Of a stretch of DNA of 64,000 nt, positions 8,451 to 63,576 are shown piece by piece (the stretch's first letter is position 1; each line of letters starts with the position of its first letter). The stretch comes from Nitrospirota bacterium. Lineage in GTDB: Bacteria; Nitrospirota; UBA9217. Position numbers and translations under genes: made by a program. Location: the NCBI GenBank assembly GCA_963751455.1, contig CAVVUN010000012.1, positions 64,001-128,000 on the forward strand. The letters are read 5' to 3'. The notes beneath the pieces are model-generated. The model was given only the letters and a program-made list of their open reading frames with translations, was not told the DNA's origin and made no database searches.

Positions 8451-8479
8451 TTGACAACATCTTGCATAAAGCATATATT
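8451..8479 (+). promoter_or_regulatory. Sigma-70-type promoter upstream of cassette array A
   Basis: TTGACA-N17-TATATT. Confidence 0.6.
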
Positions 8480-8742: not shown

Positions 8743-9249
8743 GTGAAAGATACACTTCAAAAAAGTATAGATCGAGCAATCATTCTATTGAAAACTCCAA
8801 GGGAATATGGAAAATATATATCGCTCAAAATATCCCCGCCTTCCGGGTGTTGCTGTTCCCATTGCTGGCCAGAAACATGGAAAACAGTCAATCAAAAAAT
8901 AGCCCCATATGGTCCCGTTGGCCATGAAGGTGACGCGATAATCGTAACAAATGGAGATAGCTTTGTTCTCGAATCTCATGAAAGCGGTCCGGAAATTATT
9001 GCTTATCTCGCTCTGGCAACGGTGTCAGCAACCCTATTGAAATCGCTTATTGATCTTGTCACCACGATCATTAAGGGCTTATCAGGCGAGCATAAAAAAC
9101 AACCTCCTCGGATCAAAATTTCAAAAAGACAAATTGTCAAAGGAAAAATTGAGGAAGAACATTTAATTGAAATAGATGTTCCGATTTCAAAAGATGTAGA
9201 AAAAAAGCTAGAAGAAATAATAAGACGATCAATAAATAAAAACTCTTAA
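8743..9249 (+). CDS. Cassette-encoded hypothetical protein (CCCxHC motif)
   Basis: AT-rich ORF with RBS, followed by attC. Confidence 0.75.
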   Translation: MKDTLQKSIDRAIILLKTPREYGKYISLKISPPSGCCCSHCWPETWKTVNQKIAPYGPVGHEGDAIIVTNGDSFVLESHESGPEIIAYLALATVSATLLKSLIDLVTTIIKGLSGEHKKQPPRIKISKRQIVKGKIEEEHLIEIDVPISKDVEKKLEEIIRRSINKNS

Positions 9250-9319
9250 CAGCAATTCAGATGCCCGCCCTATACACGCCTTTGGGACAGATAGAGCAGA
9301 GCAAAATTCGACGCGATGA

Positions 9320-9378
9320 TTCCAACATCGCCGTCGAGAGGGTCGCTGAAAAACACGCCCCTCACGGCGGCGTTGGAA
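9320..9378 (+). mobile_element. attC site (59 bp)
   Basis: TTCCAAC...GCCGT-c-GAG...CTC-ACGGC...GTTGGAA, with an extrahelical base. Confidence 0.9.
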
Positions 9379-9459
9379 ACGCTGCGCATCTCTCTTCCAA
9401 CCAGCAATTCTAGCGGACAAGGCCGCTCAATGTCCGAAAATCAATAAAAGGAGAAGCGT

Positions 9460-9930
9460 ATGATCGAGTCAATTCCGGTTGCACTAACAAGCCTCAAAGC
9501 GGCAACGGACATAATTTCATCCTTGCTTAAACTTCGTGAGTTCAACAACCATGCCGGAGAGATTGCACAACTCCTCAACCACATTATCCAAGCCAATACT
9601 ACAATTATCTCCGTACAGCAAGATCATTCTTCTTTGACGGCGAAAGTACAAGAACTTGAAAAGGAATGTGTGCGCCTCAAAGATTGGAGCGCAGAAAAAG
9701 ACCAATATGAACGAAGAAACATTGGCCCCGGTGTTTTTGCATACATACTGAAAGGCTACAAAGACGAGTTCGAGAAAGCGCATAAATTTTGCTGTAATTG
9801 CTTCGATAAAACTATCAAATCTACTCTTCAACAATCTGAAGATAATAAAGGTCGTGGACGCTTTAACATTCTTACTTGTCCTAACGGATGTCCTAAAATC
9901 GAATTTCATTACTACCTCGAAAATAAATGA
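9460..9930 (+). CDS. Cassette-encoded coiled-coil plus zinc-ribbon protein
   Basis: RBS AAGGAG; CCNC...CPNGC cysteine pairs. Confidence 0.8.
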   Translation: MIESIPVALTSLKAATDIISSLLKLREFNNHAGEIAQLLNHIIQANTTIISVQQDHSSLTAKVQELEKECVRLKDWSAEKDQYERRNIGPGVFAYILKGYKDEFEKAHKFCCNCFDKTIKSTLQQSEDNKGRGRFNILTCPNGCPKIEFHYYLENK

Positions 9931-10051
9931 TCTATAGCCAGCAGGCCTATAGCCCGACAAGCGGCTCAACGTTTCAAAGGAACCCAAAGTCTTTTCTTTA
10001 TCATGTACGTTTTCCCGCCATAGATGGCGATAATCTTACTACAGGAGGAAA

Positions 10052-10369
10052 GTGATGAAATTACCAGAAAAGCAATTGCGTTACATTGATCGACCTGAGA
10101 TTTACGAGACATATGCAGACTCCTTGGGTTTGTCAACATTCGATGGTCACAGTTTGAGAGTTGAATTGTGTGTTACTCGACTTGATCCGCCTTCGCCGCC
10201 GAAACAACCAACGGGAAGAAAATATCCTACATGCCGATTAGTTTTATCTCCCGAAGCTTCCGTAGAACTATTCAATCAATTACAGCAGATGATAGGCGTC
10301 ATGCAACAGCAAGGCTTGGTCGTAAAAAACGAACCGCCTAAAGGTGGAACTCCACCAGCAGTTCACTAA
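10052..10369 (+). CDS. Cassette-encoded hypothetical protein
   Basis: RBS AGGAGG; followed by attC. Confidence 0.8.
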   Translation: MMKLPEKQLRYIDRPEIYETYADSLGLSTFDGHSLRVELCVTRLDPPSPPKQPTGRKYPTCRLVLSPEASVELFNQLQQMIGVMQQQGLVVKNEPPKGGTPPAVH

Positions 10370-10384
10370 TACGATACAACTGCA

Positions 10385-10435
10385 TTCCAACCAGCGGCTC
10401 GACCCGACGAAGCGCGGGTCATCCGGGCGTTATAT
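10385..10435 (+). mobile_element. attC site
   Basis: TTCCAAC...GACCCG/CGGGTC...GTTATAT. Confidence 0.75.
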
Positions 10436-10457
10436 CGTAATCTCTTGGGAGGTACGC

Positions 10458-10700
10458 ATGACCCCGCGCTAGAAAAAAACCCGTTACGAAGACACCGCAG
10501 AATACAAAAAAGATGTGGTGCATGAAATCAGATTTATTAAGGGCGATAAAGACTTTGGATGGCTTCATCTTTGGGGCGATCCGAAAGAAAAGCCGGGCGT
10601 TATTCAGGATGCTATAAAAGAATTCGAGCATGCGCATGGAATATTTGACTGGCACGAAAAAGCCGACCGATATGAAACACGTAGTTATTGGTTTGGATAA
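10458..10700 (+). pseudogene. Small cassette ORF with in-frame TAG at codon 5
   Basis: GGAGG then ATG ACC CCG CGC TAG, in frame with KKTRYEDTAEYKKDVVHEIRF... Confidence 0.55.
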
Positions 10701-10718
10701 ACACAAAAGGAGCCCAAA

Positions 10719-10958
10719 ATGCCTTTACCAAAAATGATGAGATCTTGTGATCTTTGCCATAGCCAATTTCAGTTTGGTCCGCACCGATATGACGGAAAGC
10801 ATATCTCACGTTATGATCTTACAGTTTGCCGCACTTGTTATGATGCAAATTGGGACGGTTGGGCACCTCATTATGAAAAAATAATTGAATCGCGTCTTGC
10901 CTCAAAGAATCTACCCAAACCGCCGAGAAATTCTAAAGGCTGGTATCCACGCGACTAA
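10719..10958 (+). CDS. Small zinc-finger protein (CxxC...CxxC), cassette-encoded
   Basis: RBS AAGGAG; CDLC and CRTC. Confidence 0.75.
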   Translation: MPLPKMMRSCDLCHSQFQFGPHRYDGKHISRYDLTVCRTCYDANWDGWAPHYEKIIESRLASKNLPKPPRNSKGWYPRD

Positions 10959-10979
10959 AACCGCTGAACGTAAATAAAA

Positions 10980-11031
10980 TTATAACCTGAAGATCGAGCC
11001 CCACGTAACGTGGCTCATCATCGCGTTATAC
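10980..11031 (+). mobile_element. attC site
   Basis: TTATAAC...GAT-c-GAGCC/GGCTC-ATC...GTTATAC; R'' complements the preceding GTTATA. Confidence 0.85.
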
Positions 11032-11044
11032 TGAGATATCGCTT

Positions 11045-12043
11045 ATGCGATGCATATATTGTTTAGAGGACAAGAAGAAATCGGATTTTCAAAAAAGAGA
11101 ACATGTGATTCCGCAGTCTTTCGGATTGTTCTCCCCAGATAATCTTCTCCTATATGAGACCATTTGTGATGATTGCAATCAATATTTCGGTGACAAAATA
11201 GAGTTGTTTTTGGGACGAGATTCATTTGAGGGTGTGGAACGATTAAGACATGGTTTAAAGCCCAAAGCTCCGCTTGCTAGGCGAAGAAGAGTAAAAAGTA
11301 AAATAAAAGAGGGTGACTGGAAGGGGCTCGTTGTAGAAGAACGACTTTGTGGAGTTAATGAGTTAGGGGTAGAGAAATCCGTTCAAGTGGGATTCTATAA
11401 TGCCAATGAAGACGAGTATCATTATTTTACTCCTGATAATATTCCCTCAAAGGAAGAGCTTATCGAACGGGGCTATCTAAAGAAAGGAACCACGATCTGG
11501 CTTGTCGCGGAAGAAGGTCGAGAAATAGATGAATTAATAGCATTGCTTCGAGGAAAAGGCATCGAAATCGCTGACAAGGATTACTTAGAAAAGAAGCAAC
11601 TACCAGACGGAAGAATACCTATTGAAATGGAAGTAACGATTGATCGCGTGATAATGAGAGGCTTCTGCAAAATCGCCTTCAATTATCTCGCATACGTTGC
11701 TGGAAAACATTTCATGTTCTCTGAAAACTTCCACGGAATACGACGATTTATTAGATATGACCAAGGTGATTGCCGCCGATATTTAAATGTGAACCAGTCT
11801 CCCATACTCTATTATGACCAAACGATGAAAATTAAAACAACTAACGGACATCTGATCACCGTCGAATGGAATCACAGCAAACTTTTTAGTAAAGTTAGTT
11901 TATTTAACACTTATACTTATGGCGTGACTCTTTGCGATAATTTTAGCGGCATTTGGATACCTCTCAAATCAGGCCATCATTTTGATATTGAAACAAAACA
12001 AGTTGGTAAGCTCATGTCAGTAAACAAGAGACTTATTATCTAA
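11045..12043 (+). CDS. HNH endonuclease-domain protein, cassette-encoded
   Basis: CIYC, EHVIPQSFG, ICDDCNQYFG; C-terminal KIAFNYL. Confidence 0.85.
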   Translation: MRCIYCLEDKKKSDFQKREHVIPQSFGLFSPDNLLLYETICDDCNQYFGDKIELFLGRDSFEGVERLRHGLKPKAPLARRRRVKSKIKEGDWKGLVVEERLCGVNELGVEKSVQVGFYNANEDEYHYFTPDNIPSKEELIERGYLKKGTTIWLVAEEGREIDELIALLRGKGIEIADKDYLEKKQLPDGRIPIEMEVTIDRVIMRGFCKIAFNYLAYVAGKHFMFSENFHGIRRFIRYDQGDCRRYLNVNQSPILYYDQTMKIKTTNGHLITVEWNHSKLFSKVSLFNTYTYGVTLCDNFSGIWIPLKSGHHFDIETKQVGKLMSVNKRLII

Positions 12044-12062
12044 TTGGCTACGGTTGCCGAGT

Positions 12063-12119
12063 GCATAACTAGCGGGTCAACATCGACTCGCCTTGCGGCG
12101 AGTTAGCCGCGTGTTGGTA
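12063..12119 (+). mobile_element. attC site
   Basis: GCATAAC...GCGG/CCGC, CTCGCC/GGCGAG...GTTGGTA. Confidence 0.85.
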
Positions 12120-12184
12120 TTGGACAAATCAATCTAAGTAGTGTGTTTATCGTTCTGCTTATTTCACAGTTAAGAGTCAACGTT

Positions 12185-12661
12185 ATGGACATAACAACTA
12201 TCACTGATCAAATCAAGAGGGTCCCTATGTCTTCCTGGATATCTTTGTGTGCATTAGCTATTTCGGTTATTAGTCTCTACGTATCTCTTCGTAAACTTGA
12301 CCGCGAGCGGAAAATGGATTCTGCGAAGAAAAGGACTGAATTGATGAACAGGCTTTCAGATGCGAAGAGGAATCTAGAAACCTCCTTGAGTTATTGCAAA
12401 CTACCAAGACCTGTATCAAAAGAATGTAAAGATAGGTGGCAAGCACATCTTCCGGGAATAGAAAATATTATTAAGAAAATAAGTGAAACATACCAGAAGC
12501 TTGAGCAATATGGACATAATATAGACCCTCTGAAGCTTGAAGCCATGACGCCGGAAATATATGAAGTGCTGAAAGTTAGTGAAGATAGCAGGTCCGAACT
12601 TAAGGAACTTCTGGAGATGTGTCTTTCATGCCCTTCGAGTAAGGTGGAGCCACCGAAATGA
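12185..12661 (+). CDS. Cassette-encoded single-TM helical protein
   Basis: N-terminal TM WISLCALAISVISLYVSL, then predicted helical region; followed by attC. Confidence 0.75.
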   Translation: MDITTITDQIKRVPMSSWISLCALAISVISLYVSLRKLDRERKMDSAKKRTELMNRLSDAKRNLETSLSYCKLPRPVSKECKDRWQAHLPGIENIIKKISETYQKLEQYGHNIDPLKLEAMTPEIYEVLKVSEDSRSELKELLEMCLSCPSSKVEPPK

Positions 12662-12663
12662 AG

Positions 12664-12720
12664 AACCAACAAGCCGGTCCACTGCGACGCGCCTTGCGGC
12701 GCGTGACCGGCGTGTTCTCC
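12664..12720 (+). mobile_element. attC site
   Basis: AACCAAC-aa-GCCGGT-c-CAC...GTG-ACCGGC-gt-GTTCTCC; R'' complements the preceding GTTGGT. Confidence 0.9.
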
Positions 12721-12789
12721 CGGCGCTTCGCGCCGCGAGAATGCGGCGGTAACTCGCGGGACTGCCATCCCGGCGCAAACAAAGCGCCG

Positions 12790-12851
12790 GGAGAACCAGG
12801 CAGTCAAGATCGTCGCCCCTTACGGGGCCGCGACTTACCGCCGCATTAGTT
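12790..12851 (+). mobile_element. attC site of a gene-less cassette (core GTT changed to ATT)
   Basis: GGAGAAC is the exact complement of the preceding GTTCTCC; ends ATTAGTT. Confidence 0.75.
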
Positions 12852-12896
12852 TTGATTAGGCCAGTCAACTCCAGTTGTTTTCAGTCAGGACTTATT

Positions 12897-14255
12897 ATGA
12901 ATGAACCTAAAGTCAACCTGTTTTATAGCTACTCTCATAAGGATGAATCGCTAAGAGACGCGCTTGAAACGCATTTATCAATTCTTAAACGGCAGGGACT
13001 TCTTTCAGATTGGCATGACCGAAAGATTATTGCTGGAAAAGACTGGGAGAGAGAAATCGATGCCTATATGACTGCGGCTGATATCATTCTCCTTCTTGTC
13101 AGTCCTGATATGATTGCCTCAGATTATTGTTATGGGAAAGAGCTAAGTAAGGCGTTAGAACGCCACGAGTCAGGCCATACAATGGTCGTCCCAGTTATTG
13201 CAAGACCCGTCGATTGGGCTAGTATGCCATTTGCAAAATTTCAAGCACTTCCCCGGGATGGAAAACCTGTAACTTCATGGGGAAACATTGATGAAGCCTG
13301 GTTAGATGTAGAGATGGGATTAAGGCGGACAATTGAAAAGATTACCACTGAAAAAGCATCCTCTTCTTCTCATCAAGCTAAGCCTGAACGTCTTAAAGAT
13401 TTGATTATGCCCGAGTTTGTTCGAATTGAGAACGCCTATGAAGGAATGAAAAAATTTAGTGGCGCATCAACAGGATTCAACGATCTCGATAAAATAATAG
13501 ATGGCATTCACCCTGGTGATATTTTATTAGTTGCTAGTCGTCCCTCCATGGGGAAAACAGATTTTGCATTAAATGTTGCCCAGCAATTTGCCATTGGTTC
13601 GGGATCAACTGTAGTCTATTTTTCGCTTCGTAAAGCACAAGATCACGTTCTTAGACGGCTTCTGTCGTCTCAAGGCAAAGTCCAAAACTCAAAGCTTGTT
13701 CGCGGCTTTTTGAGAGAATCTGACTGGCCCAAGATATCCCTCGCTGCTGGAACGCTTGCAGAAGCACCGATCTTCATTGATGGAACTTCAAATTTAACTG
13801 ATACCGATTTAACTTCACGTATAGACGGTCTGAAGGATAACAAACTAGGCTTGATAATAATCGACGGCATTGAGCACATCTCATCTGAGAAGAATCATTC
13901 TACTCGAAACACTGAAGTAACATCAATTATTTCAGCTATTAAAAATCTCGCGAGGCAGCAGAAAATACCAATCATTATAACCGCGAACACGAGTCGTGAA
14001 AGTGACCTGCGTAGAGACAAACGGCCAATACTTCGCGATTTGGCGGAATGGGAAATGTTTGCCTCGGATATAGCTAATGTTGTCATTTTCCTCTATCGTG
14101 ATGAGATATACAACATTGACTCTCCGGACAAGGGAACTACCGAAATAATAGTAGCCAAAAATGATTATGGTCCGATAAATGTAGTTCGCGTTAAATATTA
14201 TTCAGAATATTGTTCTTTTGAAAACATTGAGGATACCAACAAGCGCGTCGAGTGA
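12897..14255 (+). CDS. TIR domain-DnaB-like helicase C-terminal domain fusion, cassette-encoded
   Basis: TIR: LFYSYSHKD, WHDRKI, ADIILLLVSPD, SDYCYGKEL. DnaB-C: STGFNDLD, ASRPSMGKT, DKRP, IFLYRDE, EIIVAK. Confidence 0.92.
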   Translation: MNEPKVNLFYSYSHKDESLRDALETHLSILKRQGLLSDWHDRKIIAGKDWEREIDAYMTAADIILLLVSPDMIASDYCYGKELSKALERHESGHTMVVPVIARPVDWASMPFAKFQALPRDGKPVTSWGNIDEAWLDVEMGLRRTIEKITTEKASSSSHQAKPERLKDLIMPEFVRIENAYEGMKKFSGASTGFNDLDKIIDGIHPGDILLVASRPSMGKTDFALNVAQQFAIGSGSTVVYFSLRKAQDHVLRRLLSSQGKVQNSKLVRGFLRESDWPKISLAAGTLAEAPIFIDGTSNLTDTDLTSRIDGLKDNKLGLIIIDGIEHISSEKNHSTRNTEVTSIISAIKNLARQQKIPIIITANTSRESDLRRDKRPILRDLAEWEMFASDIANVVIFLYRDEIYNIDSPDKGTTEIIVAKNDYGPINVVRVKYYSEYCSFENIEDTNKRVE

Positions 14256-14291
14256 GTCGCGAAAATCTCGCTCCTCACGCGCGCGTTGTAA
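14234..14291 (+). mobile_element. attC site overlapping the stop codon of the TIR-DnaB gene
   Basis: TACCAAC-aa-GCGCGT-c-GAG...CTC-ACGCGC-gc-GTTGTAA, 58 bp. Confidence 0.9.
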
Positions 14292-14417: not shown

Positions 14418-15083
14418 ATGTTCGAGAATCTGAAGCATAAACTAAGGATGTTGGCGACTATACCGGCTCCCTTCGACCCTTCATGTTTCGGAGATCCCCT
14501 AGCATCGCAAACCGCCTGGACGCCGGCACGAGGGGGCGGATCGAGTTTTCGGACCCATAATCTCATAAAAGCGGGGACAAACAGAGTCGAGTTCCGGCCA
14601 TCGTTTGGGGCAGTTCTATTTTACCTTCTGTTCCTGGTTATCGGCCTGGCAATGGTTATTGGCGCCGCTGTCATCTTATTGTCGCCCGAGAAATTCGAAT
14701 GGCGTACAGTGGCACTTCTGTCGGCGGGTCTGCTCTTTGCCGGCCTCGGCGGTTATCTGTTCAACTCTAACACACAACCGCTTGTTTTCGAGAAAGCCCG
14801 GGGCGTATTCTGGAAAGGCAGGAAGGGCCCGGACGAAGTCATTGATAACAAGGTAGCCGGCCGGTTTGCCCGCCTGGATGATGTTCACGCTTTGCAATTG
14901 ATCGTGGAACACTGCAGTGGCGGCAAGAGTTCATTTTACAGTTACGAGTTGAATCTTGTTCTGAAAAATGGTGAGCGCATTAATGTAGTTGATCACGGAA
15001 ACAGAAATAAGCTCCGGGAAGATGCGGAGACAGTGGCAGCGTTTCTCGGGAAGCCGCTGTGGGATGCAACGACAAGAGTATAG
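14418..15083 (+). CDS. Two-TM membrane protein, paralog of 17465-18121
   Basis: RBS AGGAGG; shared FGDP, FWKGRK.PDEV, HALQLI, YELNLVLK, LREDA motifs. Confidence 0.85.
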   Translation: MFENLKHKLRMLATIPAPFDPSCFGDPLASQTAWTPARGGGSSFRTHNLIKAGTNRVEFRPSFGAVLFYLLFLVIGLAMVIGAAVILLSPEKFEWRTVALLSAGLLFAGLGGYLFNSNTQPLVFEKARGVFWKGRKGPDEVIDNKVAGRFARLDDVHALQLIVEHCSGGKSSFYSYELNLVLKNGERINVVDHGNRNKLREDAETVAAFLGKPLWDATTRV

Positions 15084-17464: not shown

Positions 17465-18121
17465 ATGTTTAAAAAATTGGAGCAGAAGCTTCAAAGCATG
17501 GCCGCTGAAATCAAGAAATATGATCCTTCAGGTTTTGGAGACCCGATTGCCATGCAGACGGAGTGGACTTCCTCAATGGGCGGACCATCCGCTGATAAAC
17601 TGGTAAAAGTCTCTTCTGCGAGACTGGAATTCCGGGCATCTCTCACCGGCAAGCTGGTTTTTCTTTTTTTTACCTTGACCGGATTAGGAATGCTGATCGC
17701 CTTCACGGTCTACAAGCTTTCGCACGGAGGGCTGTCATTCGATAACGACACGATCGTGCCTCTCTTGATTGGCCTTGCCTTTACGCTCGCGGGAAGCCTT
17801 ATGCTGTATTCTATCACGGCTCCAGCCGTTTTTGACAAGCGCAGCGGGTTCTTCTGGAAGGGGCGGAAGGCCCCGGATGAGGTCAGTGACAGACGGACTA
17901 TTAAGTATTGCGCGAAGCTTGAAGATATCCATGCCCTGCAGCTCATTTCCTTTTTTTGCAGCGGCCCGAAAATGCGTCCACACTACAGATATGAATTGAA
18001 CCTTGTCCTGAAAGACGCCAAGCGCGTCTACATCGTTCTTGATGACAAGAAGGACAAGGTCAGGGAAGACGCGCGTACACTTTCTCAATTTTTGGACAAA
18101 CCTGTCTGGGATGCCATATGA
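17465..18121 (+). CDS. Two-TM membrane protein, paralog of 14418-15083
   Basis: RBS AAGGAG; shared motifs with 14418-15083. Confidence 0.85.
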   Translation: MFKKLEQKLQSMAAEIKKYDPSGFGDPIAMQTEWTSSMGGPSADKLVKVSSARLEFRASLTGKLVFLFFTLTGLGMLIAFTVYKLSHGGLSFDNDTIVPLLIGLAFTLAGSLMLYSITAPAVFDKRSGFFWKGRKAPDEVSDRRTIKYCAKLEDIHALQLISFFCSGPKMRPHYRYELNLVLKDAKRVYIVLDDKKDKVREDARTLSQFLDKPVWDAI

Positions 18122-32274: not shown

Positions 32275-32810
32275 TCAAAAGTCCAGAGGGCTTTTCGCTT
32301 CCTTCACGGTCCTGCTCGGGATGCAATGCGTGTAAATCATAGTCGTCCTGACATCCGCGTGCCCGTGGAGCGTCTGAATCGTCCGGATATCGTAGTTGGC
32401 CTGCAGCAGGTGCGTTGCATAAAGGCCGGATTTTGCGTTGGTGCGAACTGGACCAGAAAATTTCAAAGTTATTTGGACGGGCTTGAGCGCGCGTTGTATC
32501 AGGGACACTTCTAACTAACGCATGAGAATAAGTTTCTTGACGGATCAACAAAGGACAGTTTTGCCGTTTCTGTTGTGAGGCAAAGAAAAGAGATACGGCA
32601 TCCGCTGCGTGTTCCACCTGCACATCATCGGAGTTTGTCTGCAAACAGCTTGACTTGAGCAGATTTCTCACCGGGGAGCGGATATTTGGCTCGAAAGTCC
32701 AGAAAATATCGCAGCCATTTGCGATATCCGGGGCGCGAAAACAGAGGAACGTTTCGGTGTTTCAGTATGCCATCAAAGCGAGCGAGAATATCTGCTGGTA
32801 TCGTCTGCAT
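32275..32810 (-). pseudogene. intI: Integron integrase (IntI-like tyrosine recombinase) remnant with the central region deleted
   Basis: C-terminal YATHLLQANYDIRTIQTLHGHADVRTTMIYTH; N-terminal YRKWLRYFLDF and HAADAVSLFF; divergent from attI and cassette array. Confidence 0.88.
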
Positions 32811-33849: not shown

Positions 33850-33904
33850 ATCCAACGATCTCGTCGAGAGAAACGCTCTCGCGTTCCTCACGCGCGCGTT
33901 TGAA
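33850..33904 (+). mobile_element. attC site
   Basis: ATCCAAC...CGT-c-GAG...CTC-ACG...GTTTGAA; right arm CCTCACGCGCGCGTT identical to the attC at 14234. Confidence 0.85.
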
Positions 33905-63509: not shown

Positions 63510-63576
63510 TTATAACGCGCGCCTGAAGAGCCGGGCGGGCTTGATCGCCCGGCCTCTTTCGAGCCGCAGGTTGGCA
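63510..63576 (-). mobile_element. attC site on the minus strand
   Basis: Minus strand TGCCAAC...GAAAGAGGCCGGGCG/CGCCCGGCTCTTC...GTTATAA, just after the higA stop. Confidence 0.8.

Follow-up and report, generated by a model that had tools for sequence, protein, structure and literature searches.

A TIR–DnaB(C) fusion protein encoded in an integron cassette and its family, candidate integrated decoys of the replicative helicase

The DNA analysed here, a window of 64,000 nucleotides, carries at 12897–14255 on the forward strand an intact open reading frame for a protein of 452 residues, P0001, in which a TIR domain is joined to the C-terminal domain of the replicative helicase DnaB. The gene is flanked by an attC site upstream (12664–12720, +), whose bottom strand folds with a z score of −3.9 against shuffled sequences, and by a second one downstream (14234–14291, +; z −3.5), which overlaps the last codons of the gene. 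These folds, set in an array with all sites on the same strand, bear out the proposal of an earlier sequence-only reading that this is a single-gene cassette between two attC sites. The span given there, 12897..14291, starts correctly with the gene, but the gene ends at 14255, and it is the downstream attC that extends to 14291. The GC content of the fusion gene is 0.42, versus 0.51 across the window. Sequences like the upstream attC recur elsewhere in the host genome. Between this site and the gene lies a non-coding stretch (12714–12851, +) made of an 83-bp inverted-repeat stretch (12714–12796) and a degenerate attC-like site (12790–12851, with ATT for GTT, z −2.2). It is bounded by complementary GTTCTCC and GGAGAAC core sites, and parts of it recur on contigs C1, C2, C3, C9 and C15 of the host genome. 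It is likely to be an empty mini-cassette or a small mobile repeat.

The cassette array extends over 8743–14291 (+) and is AT-rich (GC 0.43 versus 0.51). Further attC-like sites on the same strand were identified at 9320–9378, 10385–10435 (weak, z −0.9), 10979–11032 and 12063–12119, and others were seen in the window at 33850–33904 and 63510–63576. Ahead of the array, a candidate sigma-70-like promoter at 8451–8479 (+) matches at 11 of 12 positions; it is the best of 18 matches, a count that is not above chance since shuffled sequences gave 14.9. No intact integron integrase was found in the 64-kb window, only a 79-residue remnant at about 32281–32514 on the reverse strand, 18 kb away. Matches to intI over the cut-off occur on contigs C1 and C2, and integron pieces are scattered over several contigs of the host genome. 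Another cassette of the array (11045–12043, +) is likewise a candidate for a defence role: its 332-residue product begins with an HNH domain (PF14279, E 6e-12). The cassettes at 8743–9249, 9460–9930, 10052–10369, 10719–10958 and 12143–12661 (+) have no convincing family match; the product of 9460–9930 has a coiled coil followed by a Cys-rich end, and that of 10719–10958 is small and Cys-rich. A pair of membrane proteins that resemble each other but belong to no known family is encoded 3 kb apart at 14418–15083 and 17465–18121 (+).

In P0001, Pfam matches TIR_2 at residues 9–106 (E 4e-12, 47 bits against a cut-off of 28) and DnaB_C at residues 189–443 (E 2e-64). The TIR domain occupies residues 5–149 (12909–13343, +), with the codon of Glu82 at 13140–13142. 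It is followed by the DnaB linker helix (LH, residues 166–183, 13392–13445, +), aligned with residues 182–199 of E. coli DnaB, and by the RecA-fold domain (residues 189–443, 13461–14225, +), recognised by both Pfam and Foldseek. The docking helix (DH, residues 273–290, 13713–13766, +) corresponds to E. coli 290–307, and its W277 to E. coli W294; all E. coli DnaB numbering was transferred via alignments. The AlphaFold2 model, built from an 83-row alignment (mean pLDDT 94.5, pTM 0.81), consists of the TIR, a long helix, the linker helix at 166–181 and the RecA domain. The best Foldseek matches listed for this model are all DnaB or G40P, and among solved DnaB proteins 2vye aligns with E 2.5e-57. 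The NCBIfam models of DnaB align from around residue 155 onwards but score below their cut-offs, with TIGR00665 scoring 248 bits against a required 385; divDNAB (PF20307) is unmatched by Pfam at E up to 0.01. Among solved TIRs the nearest by sequence include AbTIR and Cat1, the latter being the closest (E 4e-5), and Glu82 aligns with the Cat1 Glu. The DnaB N-terminal collar domain (PF00772) is absent according to Pfam and the TIR occupies its place, so the description of a TIR that keeps the Glu in SDYCYGKEL and replaces the DnaB N-terminal domain holds.

The working positions of DnaB include the catalytic Glu, the RESG loop that serves ssDNA and the arginine finger. All three are changed in P0001: R245 is found in place of the catalytic Glu, AEWE 383–386 in place of RESG 403–406 and D423 in place of R442. 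The motifs on which the degeneration had been read (SDYCYGKEL, ASRPSMGKT, FSLRK, DGIEH, ANTSR, DLAEWE and KNDYGP) are all found in the translation, those of the helicase part aligning with the canonical DnaB motifs. Also as described, the linker helix is present in the model and the Walker A Lys (K220, in GKT) is in place. P0001 further retains D323, the Asp of Walker B, and K421, the Lys of KQRNG, and the nucleotide pocket is therefore dismantled only in part.

The protein belongs to a sizeable family. A protein search listed 120 proteins, 92 of which were chosen as TIR plus DnaB_C, and a profile search added more; among the 362 proteins collected, 145 have both domains and 125 are full-length TIR–DnaB(C) fusions. 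Dereplication at 70% leaves 107, whose DnaB parts are on average 32% identical. In the ESM Atlas the same architecture is found in a cluster of 62 members that bears an automatically assigned name. A search with a spaced DNA pattern returned 33 metagenome loci, of which 21 have the fusion and 3 a split copy, 1 has the TIR only and 8 are chance matches, and a scan of a genome collection was dominated by generic TIRs, fusions making up 7 of 80 loci. By name, the sources are Nitrospirota, Deltaproteobacteria, Betaproteobacteria and Gammaproteobacteria, with Massilia, Ralstonia, Luteimonas, Pseudoalteromonas and Caballeronia among the cultured carriers. Several members are annotated as replicative DNA helicase, which hides the family in databases. 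Of 64 genomes of the host's class, many of them incomplete, two carry the fusion, and an ordinary DnaB with its N-terminal domain was present alongside it in all five carrier genomes tested. The fusion gene is accessory. In viral contigs no relative of P0001 was found by a single-protein search, which is sensitive to close relatives only.

Forty loci were examined for their gene neighbourhoods; 28 hold a fusion in one frame, two of them identical, and the larger neighbouring ORFs of the 27 distinct loci were scanned. No recurrent partner gene was found among them. Five loci have defence-system neighbours: Mrr-like, Ppl-like and type I R fragment genes (L001), DRT5 (L022), PDC-S06 (L110), an AriA-type ATPase with DUF4435, PARIS-like (L112), and a McrBC-like gene (L116). 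Toxin–antitoxin (TA), Fic or IrrE genes stand beside the fusion in four (L002, L004, L092, L093) and mobile-element genes alone in another four (L067, L097, L113, L120). The loci of chance matches served as a rough control, in which PADLOC matched one generic AAA ATPase and one primase-polymerase. This informal comparison is suggestive of a link between the fusion and defence genes. On the question of whether homologs sit in defence islands, nine of the 27 loci have defence or TA-type neighbours and 14 have no recognised defence or mobile neighbour, several of these lying among housekeeping genes and many contigs being short. In most cases the homolog gene has a higher AT content than the locus around it. 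Integron location was considered as a family trait and rejected, as a heuristic scan of 28 homolog loci, several of which end near the gene, found attC-like sites downstream in none and upstream in two; the cassette is thus one vehicle among several. At one locus (L123:4869-6732) the fusion gene faces rplI, a gene near which dnaB is often located.

Across the family, the two halves of the protein have had different fates. The TIR Glu is present in 121 of 125 fusions; of the four exceptions, three are divergent TIRs that the pattern failed to match. On the helicase side, the catalytic Glu is retained in only 13 of the 107 dereplicated fusions, the motif-III Gln in 14 and the arginine finger in 26; the RESG loop keeps its Arg in 3, its Ser in 4 and its Gly in 19. 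All five motor residues tested are retained together in 2 of 125. The loss of catalytic residues noticed in P0001 is therefore conserved among its homologs. Walker A, reported as kept, is kept in P0001 but not family-wide, since the Lys is found in 63 of 107 only; the P-loop Gly is found in 88, and whole subgroups have remodelled P-loops. Retention is high at the Walker B Asp, with 102 of 107, and at the finger Lys, with 93. In the docking helix W277 is kept in 95, G270 in 89, D276 in 80 and A283 in 85, and in a loop R372 is kept in 97, K375 in 88, R376 in 95 and P377 in 106 of the 107. Y405 is retained in 87% of fusions, and the linker helix is moderately retained (E178 0.39, Y181 0.50).

A domain with such a pocket could be a sensor of nucleotide pools, binding an NTP that it does not hydrolyse and changing its oligomeric state, so as to free the TIR, when a phage shifts the pools. 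The Walker B Asp, the finger Lys and the P-loop Gly speak for this, as does the GKT of P0001, and at two of the 27 loci (L055:7107-9326, L124:104-5474) the fusion gene follows ribonucleotide reductase genes. We nevertheless consider it unlikely, given how often the Walker A Lys is missing and the P-loop remodelled; it also leaves unaccounted for the preferential retention of the outer segments 391–398 and 424–434, discussed below.

The degeneration of the helicase half might in principle reflect nothing but erosion after a chance joining of a TIR gene to dnaB. The fusions do form a gradient, from intact (P0170, P0067) to heavily changed, and in three metagenome loci (L111:971-2313, L100 and L106) the TIR and DnaB parts lie in different frames, each possibly a pseudogene or a sequencing error. 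However, there are 125 open full-length frames at a mean identity of 32%, and the losses are concentrated at catalytic and ssDNA positions, while other residues, including W385, N422, Y434 and E173, are newly conserved and specific to the family. Of the 12 closest pairs, two are not saturated at synonymous sites, and for the helicase half these give dN/dS ratios of 0.09 (L097/L022) and 0.13 (L004/L113); the remaining pairs are saturated or identical. A ratio of about 0.1 together with a family-wide catalytic loss indicates selective remodelling rather than decay. Neutral decay of the homologs, named beforehand as an outcome that would count against a decoy, was thus not seen, and as an explanation it is largely refuted and very improbable.

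A tree that combines 28 fusions with 21 canonical DnaBs places most of the fusions, P0001 among them, in one group, an early branch of which (P0052, P0058, P0081) still has the catalytic Glu, and seven near-intact fusions are placed among the canonical DnaBs. The AU test, under a simple model and on a subset of 34 rows picked after inspection of that tree, rejects a single clade for all fusions (p 0.0005). Two or more origins of the fusion are thus probable, with loss of the motor coming afterwards, in a tree whose root is unfixed and whose long branches may mislead.

The LH–DH module is described as the common binding site of DciA, DnaC and lambda P, with DciA covering the docking-helix Trp of DnaB, in the part of PMC9912922 used here. 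In E. coli DnaB, the contacts made by lambda P are at LH 182–199, DH 290–307, 391–398, 424–434 and 446–456 (PMC12661323). When catalytic and ssDNA positions are omitted, the ratio of DnaB consensus retention, relative to a canonical set of 21 rows, is 0.73 in the segments contacted by lambda P (27 positions) versus 0.59 elsewhere (113 positions); the permutation p is 0.005, from columns that are not independent and with exposed and buried positions pooled. For polar positions only, the ratios are 0.72 (12) versus 0.52 (44), with p 0.016. The set of catalytic and ssDNA positions has a ratio of 0.26. Preferential retention of the loader-binding surfaces in the fusions is therefore supported at the level of the alignment. 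The LH–DH surfaces also build DnaB rings (PMC12661323), and the lambda P segments are at once DnaB subunit contacts and partly core structure. Since the retained surfaces also form DnaB's own ring, no loader is singled out.

The reading that we favour, tentatively and with its chances slightly under even, is that the fusion may be a single-protein anti-phage alarm, in which phage proteins that take over or inhibit DnaB would be lured by the dead helicase and the TIRs would then destroy NAD+. Behind this reading stand the near-invariant TIR Glu, the loss of motor residues beside retained docking surfaces, purifying selection, a patchy distribution, the presence of a normal DnaB in the same cells, the defence-type neighbours at some loci and the lack of a recurrent partner gene. 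The decoy would assemble DnaB-like oligomers through LH–DH with its TIRs kept inactive. A phage loader (lambda P-, DnaC- or DciA-like) or an inhibitor would dock at the LH–DH junction and reshape the decoy ring, as lambda P does with DnaB. The TIRs would thereby regroup as an active NADase, and the destruction of NAD+ would lead to abortive infection. Ped1 is an example of a phage-encoded DnaB inhibitor (PMC13728149, in the part used here). The host genome encodes DciA, and host DciA binds the same LH–DH module, so the bait would have to ignore it. Counting against the bait are the retention of the Walker B Asp and of the finger Lys, residues of no obvious use to a domain that serves as protein bait alone, the moderate retention of the linker helix, the 14 loci that lack recognised defence or mobile neighbours, the failure to find a convincing exchange of the TIR for another effector, and the host genome, in which no lambda P-family gene was found. 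A complex prediction with two decoy domains (158–446) and lambda P 118–233 gave a score of 0.00 with the fold of the partner uncertain, and is given neutral weight.

Alternatively, the trigger may be the invader's helicase rather than a loader: the dead domain would join a DnaB-type helicase of a phage or plasmid by LH–DH swapping, poison the ring and align the TIRs. The surfaces retained are those that build DnaB rings, and loss of the catalytic Glu and arginine finger would be expected to yield a dominant-negative subunit. DnaB homologs are common on plasmids, where 709 records of a plasmid collection were matched; the 40 listed are of the ordinary DnaB type and one record covers 80% of the query. 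Phage primase-helicases are moreover reported as triggers of other systems (Avs20; TIR-retron escapers) in the portions of those accounts drawn on here. Such a subunit would have to avoid the host DnaB, however, which is present in all five carriers and which here, split across the ends of contigs C14 and C4, is 38% identical to P0001 over the RecA domain; the N-terminal collar, an aid to ring assembly, is also gone. We hold this to be improbable, though a real contender. It shares with the loader bait the logic of defence by protein bait.

Taken over the family, the loader-bait reading extends to a broader one, in which bacteria would have repeatedly made the replicative helicase an integrated decoy by pairing a motor-dead DnaB, pared down to what loaders and inhibitors of phages have to contact, with a TIR NADase, so that hijack brings cell death. 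This is quite possible but held with real doubt, as is the part of it by which the series from near-intact to fully degenerate fusions would record the steps of domestication. The TIR–DnaB(C) proteins are a real, selected, sensor–effector family, apparently undescribed, and there is a fair chance that in them the replicative helicase has truly been made an integrated decoy.

Several known systems are comparable in part. Cat1, AbTIR, SPARTA, TIR-SAVED and the TIR-bearing Avs/STAND proteins have NADase activity that depends on oligomerisation. They likewise join a TIR with the conserved Glu to a sensor capable of oligomerising; theirs is a CARF, SAVED, Argonaute or STAND-TPR module, whereas that of the fusion is a replicative-helicase domain, and for the fusion no signal molecule, guide or partner is evident. 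Plant NLR integrated decoys and bacterial chaperone-type TAC sensors wire a copied, pathogen-targeted host protein to a death effector. The fusion differs from these in having no NLR or toxin–antitoxin core; it joins two domains directly, and the target copied is DnaB. With DnaB itself (SF4; PDB 2vye, 2r6a, 6bbm, 6t66; TIGR00665) it shares the linker helix, RecA fold, docking helix and Walker A/B positions, but it has a TIR for the N-terminal domain, has lost the catalytic Glu, RESG loop and arginine finger, and is an accessory protein coexisting with a normal dnaB. It does not group with Avs/STAND proteins, as by Pfam and Foldseek its NTPase is of the RecA/DnaB class and no repeat domain is found. 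Avs20 is a STAND receptor that recognises phage primase-helicase by its RecA-type ATPase domains (bioRxiv 10.64898/2026.01.04.697583, in the part used here); it is likewise keyed to phage replication helicases, but there a STAND protein reads the helicase fold, whereas here the sensor is the helicase fold. In the type XI-like retron lineage TXI_noncan_h, DnaB_C genes adjoin the reverse transcriptase, similarly a DnaB_C in a candidate defence locus, though as a separate ORF and with no TIR in the description drawn on (PMC13712802).

The TIR also matches the PADLOC model of Thoeris ThsB (PDLC00420, E 3.5e-60), over model positions 3–159 of 319, the C-terminal half of the fusion being DnaB instead. 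The protein might accordingly act in Thoeris-type signalling, sending an ADPR-derived signal to an effector encoded elsewhere, or be a non-defence stress switch that monitors the host replisome, which would suit the 14 loci lacking defence neighbours. Both are rather remote: the ThsB_TIR model of Pfam reaches only E 0.01, below its cut-off; no neighbour gene is shared across the 27 loci; no adjacent thsA was found among the neighbouring ORFs scanned in the window and these loci; and no ThsA SLOG or Macro domain was found in the five carrier genomes, by searches that had no positive control.

The half-match to ThsB is all that PADLOC 2.0 returns, no system in it having the TIR–DnaB(C) architecture, and no paper describing the fusion was found, in agreement with the sequence-only reading, which knew of no such system. 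The literature covered excludes bioRxiv supplements and subscription papers, and a listing among predicted defence families is therefore possible. DnaB is unmentioned in the main text and six supplements of PMC11350192 and, by term look-up, in bioRxiv 10.64898/2025.12.03.692087, bioRxiv 10.1101/2025.01.08.631966, PMC7159879 and PMC13434031. In the Avs paper it appears in the references only, and the part of PMC7824862 used here covers phage DnaBs only.

If the decoy reading is true, the family would be a clear bacterial instance of an essential replication protein made into an integrated decoy, and would point to a testable weak point of phages, their reliance on the host helicase. As a single gene, the fusion would be a genetically simple tool for finding phage proteins that bind DnaB. 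The family also provides a natural series in which the motor residues of DnaB are separated from its docking residues.

Other arrangements of the same domain were encountered. No convincing case of another effector in place of the TIR on a degenerate domain was found by three approaches, in which ordinary DnaBs crowded the results. Two apparent effector swaps were rejected, P0372 as an intein-bearing DnaB fragment and P0458 as what looks like a frameshift artefact. Near-intact DnaB_C domains occur with other N-termini, all candidates only: P0249 is HNH-like by eye, P0217 has a DnaA-type AAA+ N-terminus (two cluster members) and P0245 an N-terminal hydrophobic segment. P0151, P0212 and P0255 have DnaB_C with altered motor motifs and no TIR, P0151 consisting of two tandem domains; they are possibly stand-alone decoys or truncated genes. 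Finally, P0125 (L002:707-2455) and P0141 are TIR–DnaB_C fusions with an extra C-terminal DUF3775.
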